Positions 21,807 through 22,626 of a stretch of DNA of 64,000 nt are shown piece after piece. The stretch is taken from the NCBI RefSeq assembly GCF_963506605.1, contig NC_083282.1:63302001-63366000 (forward strand). The letters are read 5' to 3'. This stretch comes from Zootoca vivipara (taxonomy: Eukaryota). The notes beneath the pieces were generated by a model. The model worked only from the letters and a program-made list of their open reading frames with translations, was not told the origin of the DNA and searched no databases. A program made the position numbers and the translations under genes. Within the stretch, counting starts at the first letter, position 1. Each line of letters begins with the position of its first letter.

Positions 21807-22285
21807 TGAGGGGAGAGACTCCATCAGGCAAGGCCTCTTTCCACCTGCCTTGCCTCGCCCCCTCCAGCCCTGGGACTCCTCATAAGGAAGCTGTGCCTGG
21901 AGGAAGAACTGTGAGGGGAGAGACTCCATCAGGTAAGGCCTCTTTCCACCTGCCTTGCCTCGCCCCCTCCAGCCCTAGGACTCCTCATAAGGAAGCTGTG
22001 CCTGGAGGAAGAACTGTGAGGGGAGAGACTCCATCAGGCAAGGCCTCTTTCCACCTGCCTTGCCCCATCCCCTCCAGCCCTGGGACTCCTCATAAGGAAG
22101 CTGTGCCTGGAGGAAGAACTGTGAGGGGAGAGACTCCATCAGGTAAGGCCTCTTTCCACCTGCCTTGCCTCGCCCCCTCCAGCCCTGGGACTCCTCATAA
22201 GGAAGCTGTGCCTGGAGGAAGAACTGTGAGGGGAGAGACTCCATCAGGCAAGGCCTCCTTCCACCTGCCTTGCCTCACCCTCCAG
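21807..22285 (+). repeat. 105-bp minisatellite (about 4.7 copies)
   Basis: Units start at 21807, 21912, 22017, 22122 and 22227 (exact 105-bp period) with few substitutions. Confidence 0.97.
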
Positions 22286-22626
22286 TCTCTATTTTTCAAT
22301 TTGTATTGTATTGTTTTATGCACTGTGGCTTGCTGTTGTTTTATTGATTATTGTTTTGAAATTATTTATTGTAAATGTTAAGAGTGGGTTTCTGTTTAAT
22401 TTTCATATGCTGATATTATTCTATACTATTGTAATGATTGTTGAACGTTACATTATTTGATTGCTTATTTTAAAGCTATGTTTTATTATCATATTTTTGT
22501 ATTGCATTAGATAGTTATAAGGTTGTTTTGTATTTCATGAGATTCTGTTTCTTCAGCTTGTAAACCGCTTTGAGTATTGTATGATAGAAAGGCGGTATAC
22601 AAATTAAAAGTGATGATGATGATGAC
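21807..22626 (+). mobile_element. Retroposon-like insert: VNTR + T-rich linker + L2-type 3' end with (ATG)n tail
   Basis: Ends gtaaaccgctttgag...gaaaggcggtatacaaattaaaag(tga)n; interrupts the host MITE at gccatga|, which resumes after the tail. Confidence 0.7.

Follow-up and report, generated by a model that had tools for sequence, protein, structure and literature searches.

A young, dispersed ORF-less retroposon family in Zootoca vivipara with likely promoter monomers and an L2-type 3′ end

Organization of the insert and its target

The window (the whole stretch of 64,000 nucleotides analysed here, from Zootoca vivipara) contains an 820-bp insert at positions 21807–22626, which interrupts a palindromic repeat. 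The left part of this host repeat (21604..21806), which we take to be MITE-like, was recognized by two inverted pairs (I2 and I8) and by uninterrupted arms at other loci, and its right arm restarts at 22626..22655, as shown by the sequence and the uninterrupted arms elsewhere. Eight distinct uninterrupted host-like arms from the fetched loci gave the majority sequence GAAGCCATGACTGT, and the insert was therefore placed between GCCATGA and CAGT. The TGA at 21807..21809 (+ strand) is common to the target site, the first unit and the tail, which corresponds to a 3–4 bp duplication or to microhomology. A first-pass annotation made from the window had placed inside a palindromic repeat an insert in which a 105-bp array leads through a T-rich linker to a stem-loop and to a (TGA)n tail that matches the target, and all of this was confirmed. 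A second copy of the host palindrome was independently hit at GCCATGA by an older member of the family (L191:2550–2650). The window also contains a GC-rich stretch (20500–21430) with a 44-bp inverted repeat (20695–20787), ∼1 kb upstream of the insert.

All parts of the insert are given on the + strand. The 105-bp tandem array was detected by TRF at 21807–22280 (4.5 copies, 96% matches) and comprises four full units plus 59 nt, that is 4.56 units, so that the array itself stood as first annotated and the count of 4.7 units did not. The four complete monomers (21807..22226), delimited by TRF and by the phase of 5′ ends (see below), are predicted to form a likely promoter array. In monomer 1, a CCACCTG motif that recurs every 105 bp is located at 21841..21847 and a TATA-like CATAAGG of predicted function at 21881..21887, with further boxes at 21986, 22091, and 22196. 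The predicted start sites, G105 and G2, lie at the monomer border (21911..21913) and are repeated at 22016/22018, 22121/22123, and 22226/22228. The partial fifth monomer of 59 nt (22227..22285) has a fixed junction to the linker, and a 25-mer from this unit–tail junction occurred in 42 exact copies in the genome compared to 0 for the reversed control. The T-rich non-coding linker (22286..22557) showed 98–100% identity among the best 40 loci scored and is related to the linker of a sister family. It is followed by an L2-type 3′ stem-loop (22558..22602), predicted from its fold, and from a similar class found after L2-type ORF ends, to be a likely recognition signal for a LINE protein; its folding gave a z of −2.0, with 6 of 200 shuffles equally good. 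The insert ends in a (TGA)5 tail (22611..22625), identified by sequence and by tail–target microhomology at rebuilt empty sites.

One + frame was found to be open through the array for 209 codons and matched no Pfam family at cut-off. A coding role for the resulting 35-codon frame was rejected, both for lack of a Pfam family and because the frame is broken in sister arrays with units of 91, 92, 103, and 104 bp; the annotated openness of the unit in one frame held, and no meaning of this frame was supported. None of 122 mapped copies (see below) had an ORF attached, in agreement with the non-autonomy proposed from the outset.

A dispersed family with phased 5′ ends

A search of the genome with the unit gave 244 matches from the best 40 of 266 candidates, and in a search with the tail the best 40 of 984 candidates were all 98–100% identical. 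A 21-mer from the tail gave 149 genomic matches at no more than one mismatch. In the fetched loci 132 distinct 3′ ends were mapped, and the 122 contiguous copies with sufficient flank were kept. Their median length was 470 bp, and their 5′ termini lay within the array in 90 cases and within the tail in 32, one of the latter being a sister-family copy. The array was linked to the tail at the dispersed loci, as the first-pass annotation had asked to be checked, and varied from less than one to about 42 units, the long arrays having 14, 14, 17, ∼21, and ∼42 units. The insert in the window represents a young copy within a dispersed retroposon family, and its description as a dispersed non-LTR retrocopy was borne out by the many genomic loci and by the junction 25-mer. 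The array–tail design was retained in older subfamilies at 88–92% identity and likewise in subfamilies at 76–80% with units of 111–114 bp, and one old array was 97% homogeneous internally. In the longest array (L061:5050–9478; G000:C1:118.79 Mb), which likely grew after insertion, ∼42 units of three lengths (103, 104, and 105 bp) are arranged in a higher-order pattern. Another (L131:3353–5241) has ∼21 units of 91–92 bp in which the bases separating the TATA-like box from the start site are lost.

The 5′ ends of the copies were found to be strongly phased. Phases 90–12 held 54 of the 90 array-terminated copies compared to 24 expected, and 47 of 72 copies ascertained by their tail compared to 19.2 expected (p 8e-12). 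Ends in one phase, the pattern of mouse L1, were also present in the active LINE of this genome (8 of 12 copies; see below). The two highest peaks were at G105 and G2 with 7 copies each out of 97, a total that counts copies with internal insertions, and both bases are preceded by T. For these peak bases, which were picked after viewing the data, the base before the start was a G in 11/14 copies vs. 22/76 elsewhere (Fisher p 7e-4), and in 11/14 vs. 7/21 with a strict control (p 0.015). At one locus (L011) the rebuilt empty site showed that the preceding G was not derived from the target, whereas some such G bases are target bases, as at L021. A copied cap leaves its mark as an extra G on the 5′ ends of full-length copies, and the extra G seen here is likely a cap signature. 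With its start at the peak phase, the copy in the window may be full length for its transcript; it is not necessarily 5′-truncated, as first proposed.

Measured from the first base of the TATA-like CATAAGG, the two peak 5′ ends lie 30 and 32 nt downstream. The conservation of this box across units is built in, as the units were cut on that motif, whereas the conservation of CCACCTG is independent; the latter is ∼90% conserved in young and old units and is also present in the active-LINE monomer and in the sister family. The 105-bp repeat is likely the promoter of the element rather than an SVA-like cargo, since the active LINE of the genome has a 5′ end of the same construction. In two raw RNA runs of ∼7.5 million records each, 78 and 49 family reads were found, about half of which continue into unlike sequence; two of the overhangs agree with sequence flanking known copies. 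No transcript start site was readable from these 78 + 49 reads.

When the upstream flanks of all 122 copies were compared with one another, 0 pairs had common sequence at the junction; as each genome search scored the best 40 candidates, this headlessness holds for the sampled copies. A four-unit query for long arrays gave one further older array, which was headless too. An L2 ORF end located 5′ of the array was considered as a head and rejected. It was seen at one locus only, in three local tandem copies, and therefore marks an older LINE fragment into which the family copy was inserted.

These data bear on the possibility that the array lies inside a longer element, be it within the 3′ UTR of an autonomous L2 or behind the head of an SVA-like composite, the rest of which is unseen because every copy is truncated in the array, and that the phasing results from stalling of the reverse transcriptase at hairpins combined with TGA microhomology. 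We consider this quite unlikely. It would be compatible with the scoring of the best 40 of 266–425 candidates in the unit searches, with the two hairpins of the unit, one of which has its 3′ arm at phase 91–97, and with the copies having a TSD of at least 5 and no microhomology, only 6/11 of which fall in the peak window (p 0.046). However, the unit folds no better than its shuffles (z 0.1), arrays of 14, 14, 17, ∼21, and ∼42 units all terminate in unrelated flanks, the only ORF-end head is the locus described above, and stalling leaves both the extra G and the same pattern in full-length LINEs unexplained.

The analogy with primate SVA drawn in the first-pass annotation was not supported. In SVA the VNTR is central, lies behind a hexamer/Alu-like 5′ domain, has 30–50-bp units, and uses L1, as described in PMC4432496. 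The lizard family resembles SVA/LAVA as presented in that paper in being non-autonomous and dispersed with a GC-rich array of variable length that is remodelled in DNA; it differs in that the array is terminal and the tail consists of an L2-type stem-loop and (TGA)n (PMC4432496). A variable-number GC-rich array in a dispersed non-autonomous element was thus observed, but no separate 5′ domain was found upstream of it in the 122 copies, the array behaving as a 5′ promoter. Instead of the poly(A) and long TSD of SVA and L1, the copies have a (TGA)n tail, and TSD-like matches of at least 6 bp were present in 20/122 copies compared to 5.4 for shuffled pairs. The family is not SVA-like in design.

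A further explanation for sharp 5′ ends at G is self-cleavage at the unit border, the array being either a satellite of SINE origin or a tandem retrozyme that carries a ribozyme, and squamates have been described to contain SINE-derived satellites (PMC10702118). For the array, a ribozyme or known RNA family was rejected, as no Rfam family reached threshold and the six matches obtained were at chance level. In motif searches, neither a Pol III A/B box on the + strand nor a hammerhead core was detected. An extra 5′ G indicates a cap rather than a cleaved end, and the extra G therefore speaks against cleavage. We regard this explanation as highly improbable.

Empty sites could be rebuilt from paralogous host repeats for 15/122 copies, with offsets of −8 to +8 in 14/15, and several of these sites had at least two bases common to tail and target. 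This agrees with the short or absent TSD and tail–target microhomology that had been expected, and L2-clade insertion fits such junctions. At the 5′ junction of one copy (L045), the first 19 unit bases are repeated twice before the element, each time restarting at G2, as from successive template jumps at the 5′ terminus of the RNA.

Relationship to a sister family and to the active LINE

The dominant, active LINE of the genome (132 scored of 114,861 first-look candidates, 99% identical) encodes an endonuclease and a reverse transcriptase, and many copies have 1,000–1,099 open codons. We take it to be L2-type from its C-terminal motifs and its tail type. It is organized as monomers, a T-rich stretch and a single ORF, and tandem 122-bp monomers (3.1–13.8) were found in the 5′ UTR of all 12 long copies fetched. 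Copies L497–L508 (e.g., L502:1980–6860; G000:C10:25.60 Mb) contain a second, 103-bp T-rich repeat in 2–3 copies after the monomers, followed by one ORF of ∼1,000–1,090 codons. Eight of the 12 copies, a small sample, start 28–31 nt past CATAAAGG, and the four copies that start at G all have an extra G. From the sequence, CATAAAGG is predicted to be the counterpart of CATAAGG in the 105-bp unit. The 105-bp family and the active LINE were young at the same time.

An ORF-less sister family, reached via its related tail, has a GC-rich head of ∼105 bp, which a T-rich linker connects to a similar stem-loop and (TGA)n. The sister loci (L272–L330, L307, L357) gave 554–1,284 first-look candidates with ∼82–95% mutual identity. 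The sister head was shown to be 76–79% identical to the active-LINE monomer (z 14.3, 0/500 shuffles) and is present in tandem in some copies, and the window linker was found to be related to the sister linker (z 9.0).

Direct comparison of the window unit with the active-LINE monomer showed two colinear motifs, and similarity over the whole unit was not significant (z 1.7, 32/500 shuffles); three older units gave z 3.7, 1.2, and 0.3. With a profile built from 26 units, both young and old, the active monomer scored 10.8 bits compared to a shuffle maximum of 6.1 (0/1000), this profile having been anchored post hoc on the CATA motif and thus leaning toward a match. Similarity of the linker to the 5′ UTR of the active LINE was not significant either (z 1.6, 15/200). 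A profile of post-array segments (8 rows, 2 of them mis-cut) gave no match to the active LINE, and the old-copy post-array segments taken singly resembled those of the active LINE in 5/6 correctly cut rows (z 1.7–3.6). In the sampled loci, neither 105-type monomers nor the exact tail of the window element were found on an autonomous element.

The weak similarity of the whole unit and of the linker, together with a stem around CCACC that is wholly different between the families, would be expected if the 105-bp unit had been captured independently, so that the promoter array and the L2-type tail both work in a composite rather than an internally deleted element, with only transcription-factor motifs in common with the LINE. 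Set against this are the colinearity of the two motifs, the nearly equal spacing to the start (30/32 vs. 28/31 nt), the relationship of the linker to that of a sister family whose head is clearly LINE-derived, and the resemblance of the post-array segments. Independent capture is accordingly regarded as unlikely, and a LINE-derived 5′ end is preferred.

At the 3′ end, the last part of the element showed similarity to the 3′ UTR of the active LINE (z 2.4, 3/200) and was identical to that of no living partner. The (TGA)n tail had been taken to set the element apart from the local (TAA)-tailed L2 family. This objection was not supported, as (TGA)n ends also occur in older copies of that lineage, to which the active LINE belongs; 14/16 distinct loci aligned to it, at 71–93%. 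The assignment of the tail to the L2 type was upheld, since a similar stem-loop class follows L2-type ORF ends. A general stem-loop pattern gave 196 matches, and those among the 100 listed belonged mostly to the 105-bp family and its sister. Among 50 loci checked, an L2-type ORF end immediately preceding such a tail was seen only at L368, the relatives of which are old (74–86% identity). The stem-loop of an ancient L2-type family was closer to that of the window element. The parent is likely a related L2 lineage rather than the active family of today.

Two reverse transcriptase fragments in the window, at 43277–44179 (−) and 49930–51340 (+), matched Pfam RVT_1 and PF09004 and have their own 3′ end; we take them to be Rex/Babar-like. 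They were rejected as partners owing to their different tail, and the one at 49930–51340 (+) is broken by a small insert. Old variants at seven further loci (L510, L511, L513, L284, L346, L347, and L372) have similar heads with different linkers and tails. Comparison of the sequences suggests that modules may have been swapped among several non-autonomous lineages.

Proposed mechanism and comparison with known elements

We consider it probable that the family is a young, dispersed ORF-less retroposon whose units likely act as Pol II promoter monomers, whose stem-loop likely borrows the protein of an L2-type LINE, and which probably originated from the two ends of such a LINE. The TATA-like box in one monomer would give a capped transcript starting ∼30 nt downstream, at the border of the next monomer. 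The LINE protein would bind the 3′ stem-loop and prime at a target matching the (TGA)n tail, and the cap would often be copied as an extra G. Because the transcript would start at the border of the next monomer, each round should cost at least one monomer. The mixed 103/105-bp higher-order pattern of the 42-unit array suggests that, once inserted, arrays may regrow at the DNA level to as many as ∼42 units, and master copies would thereby stay alive. To a more specific reading we give slightly less than even weight: lizard L2 LINEs would have arrived independently at a mouse-L1-like tandem promoter of relay design, in which the box would fire into the next monomer, with only the array and stem-loop kept by several ORF-less lineages and regrowth of the arrays accounting for their persistence over a divergence of more than 20%.

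Bipartite non-autonomous LINE derivatives, or SIDEs, are known, including RIME, NARTc, derivatives of Vingi-1_EE, Bov-A, the R2 SIDE, and the CR1-derived Persaeus (PMC5786205, PMC6740152). The lizard family likely belongs among them. Like the SIDEs described in these two papers, it has no ORF and no Pol III head, and combines a putative LINE-type 5′ part, for which homology is clear in the sister family and weak in this one, with a LINE 3′ end; by analogy, Pol II transcription and mobilization in trans are likely common to both (PMC5786205, PMC6740152). The list in PMC5786205 (2018) includes only RTE, Ingi, Vingi, and R2, and PMC6740152 (2019) adds CR1. The present family differs from the clades listed there in being L2-type and in having a variable tandem array as its 5′ part. 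It also differs from Persaeus, which shows 71–99% identity to its partner, in having far lower identity, only the sister head reaching 76–79% (PMC5786205, PMC6740152). ORF-less derivatives formed by internal deletion are presented in these sources as rare and limited to few LINE clades, L2 not being named in the passages concerned.

In mouse L1, phased 5′ ends of monomers correspond to start sites (PMC6454616), and daughter copies were reported to be 0.6–1.8 monomers shorter than their donors (PMC10620060). As in mouse L1, the lizard elements have a variable 5′ tandem array with ends in one phase and a predicted loss of monomers on retrotransposition (PMC6454616, PMC10620060, PMC5381506). According to the same accounts of mouse L1, the LINE clade is different, the monomers are ∼200 bp compared to 105–122 bp, and YY1 takes the place of the TATA-like box located ∼30 nt upstream in the lizard; furthermore, the lizard units have 1–2 CpG each and the carrier element is without ORFs (PMC6454616, PMC10620060, PMC5381506). 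The squamate satellites sSat1–3 (units of 70–290 nt) are similar in having tandem units inside a retroposon of scaled reptiles, but they are described as parts of tRNA-headed Squam SINEs with local growth, whereas no Pol III boxes were found in the lizard array, which in each subfamily moves between loci together with the element (PMC10702118). A literature search gave no description of the present element; Repbase, Dfam, and subscription journals were outside this search, and the family may already be catalogued there.

The known clades of ORF-less derivatives would be widened by an L2-type case in which one vertebrate genome harbours several long-lived lineages. If the relay reading is true, this L2-derived SIDE group would be the first to be described, and monomer-promoter renewal could be examined in a compact natural system. 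How tandem monomer promoters are maintained in mouse L1 was called unclear in PMC6454616, and an 800-bp element with older subfamilies and an active LINE of like design offers many dated copies for this question, together with a simple prediction: a box, 30 nt, and a capped G.

Through the family, new sites also acquire GC-rich minisatellites, which are up to 4.4 kb long. At one locus (L200; G000:C17:14.71 Mb) a copy in a LINE fragment has been multiplied by a larger local tandem duplication and has lost its tail. At L246:61–3040, a short family copy interrupts a nearly whole ORF of ∼1,000 codons, presumably CR1-like, close to the end of that ORF. Finally, the upstream flank at L195 shows an old copy located ∼80 bases past an apparent coding exon and splice donor, and this copy therefore appears to lie in an intron of a host gene.
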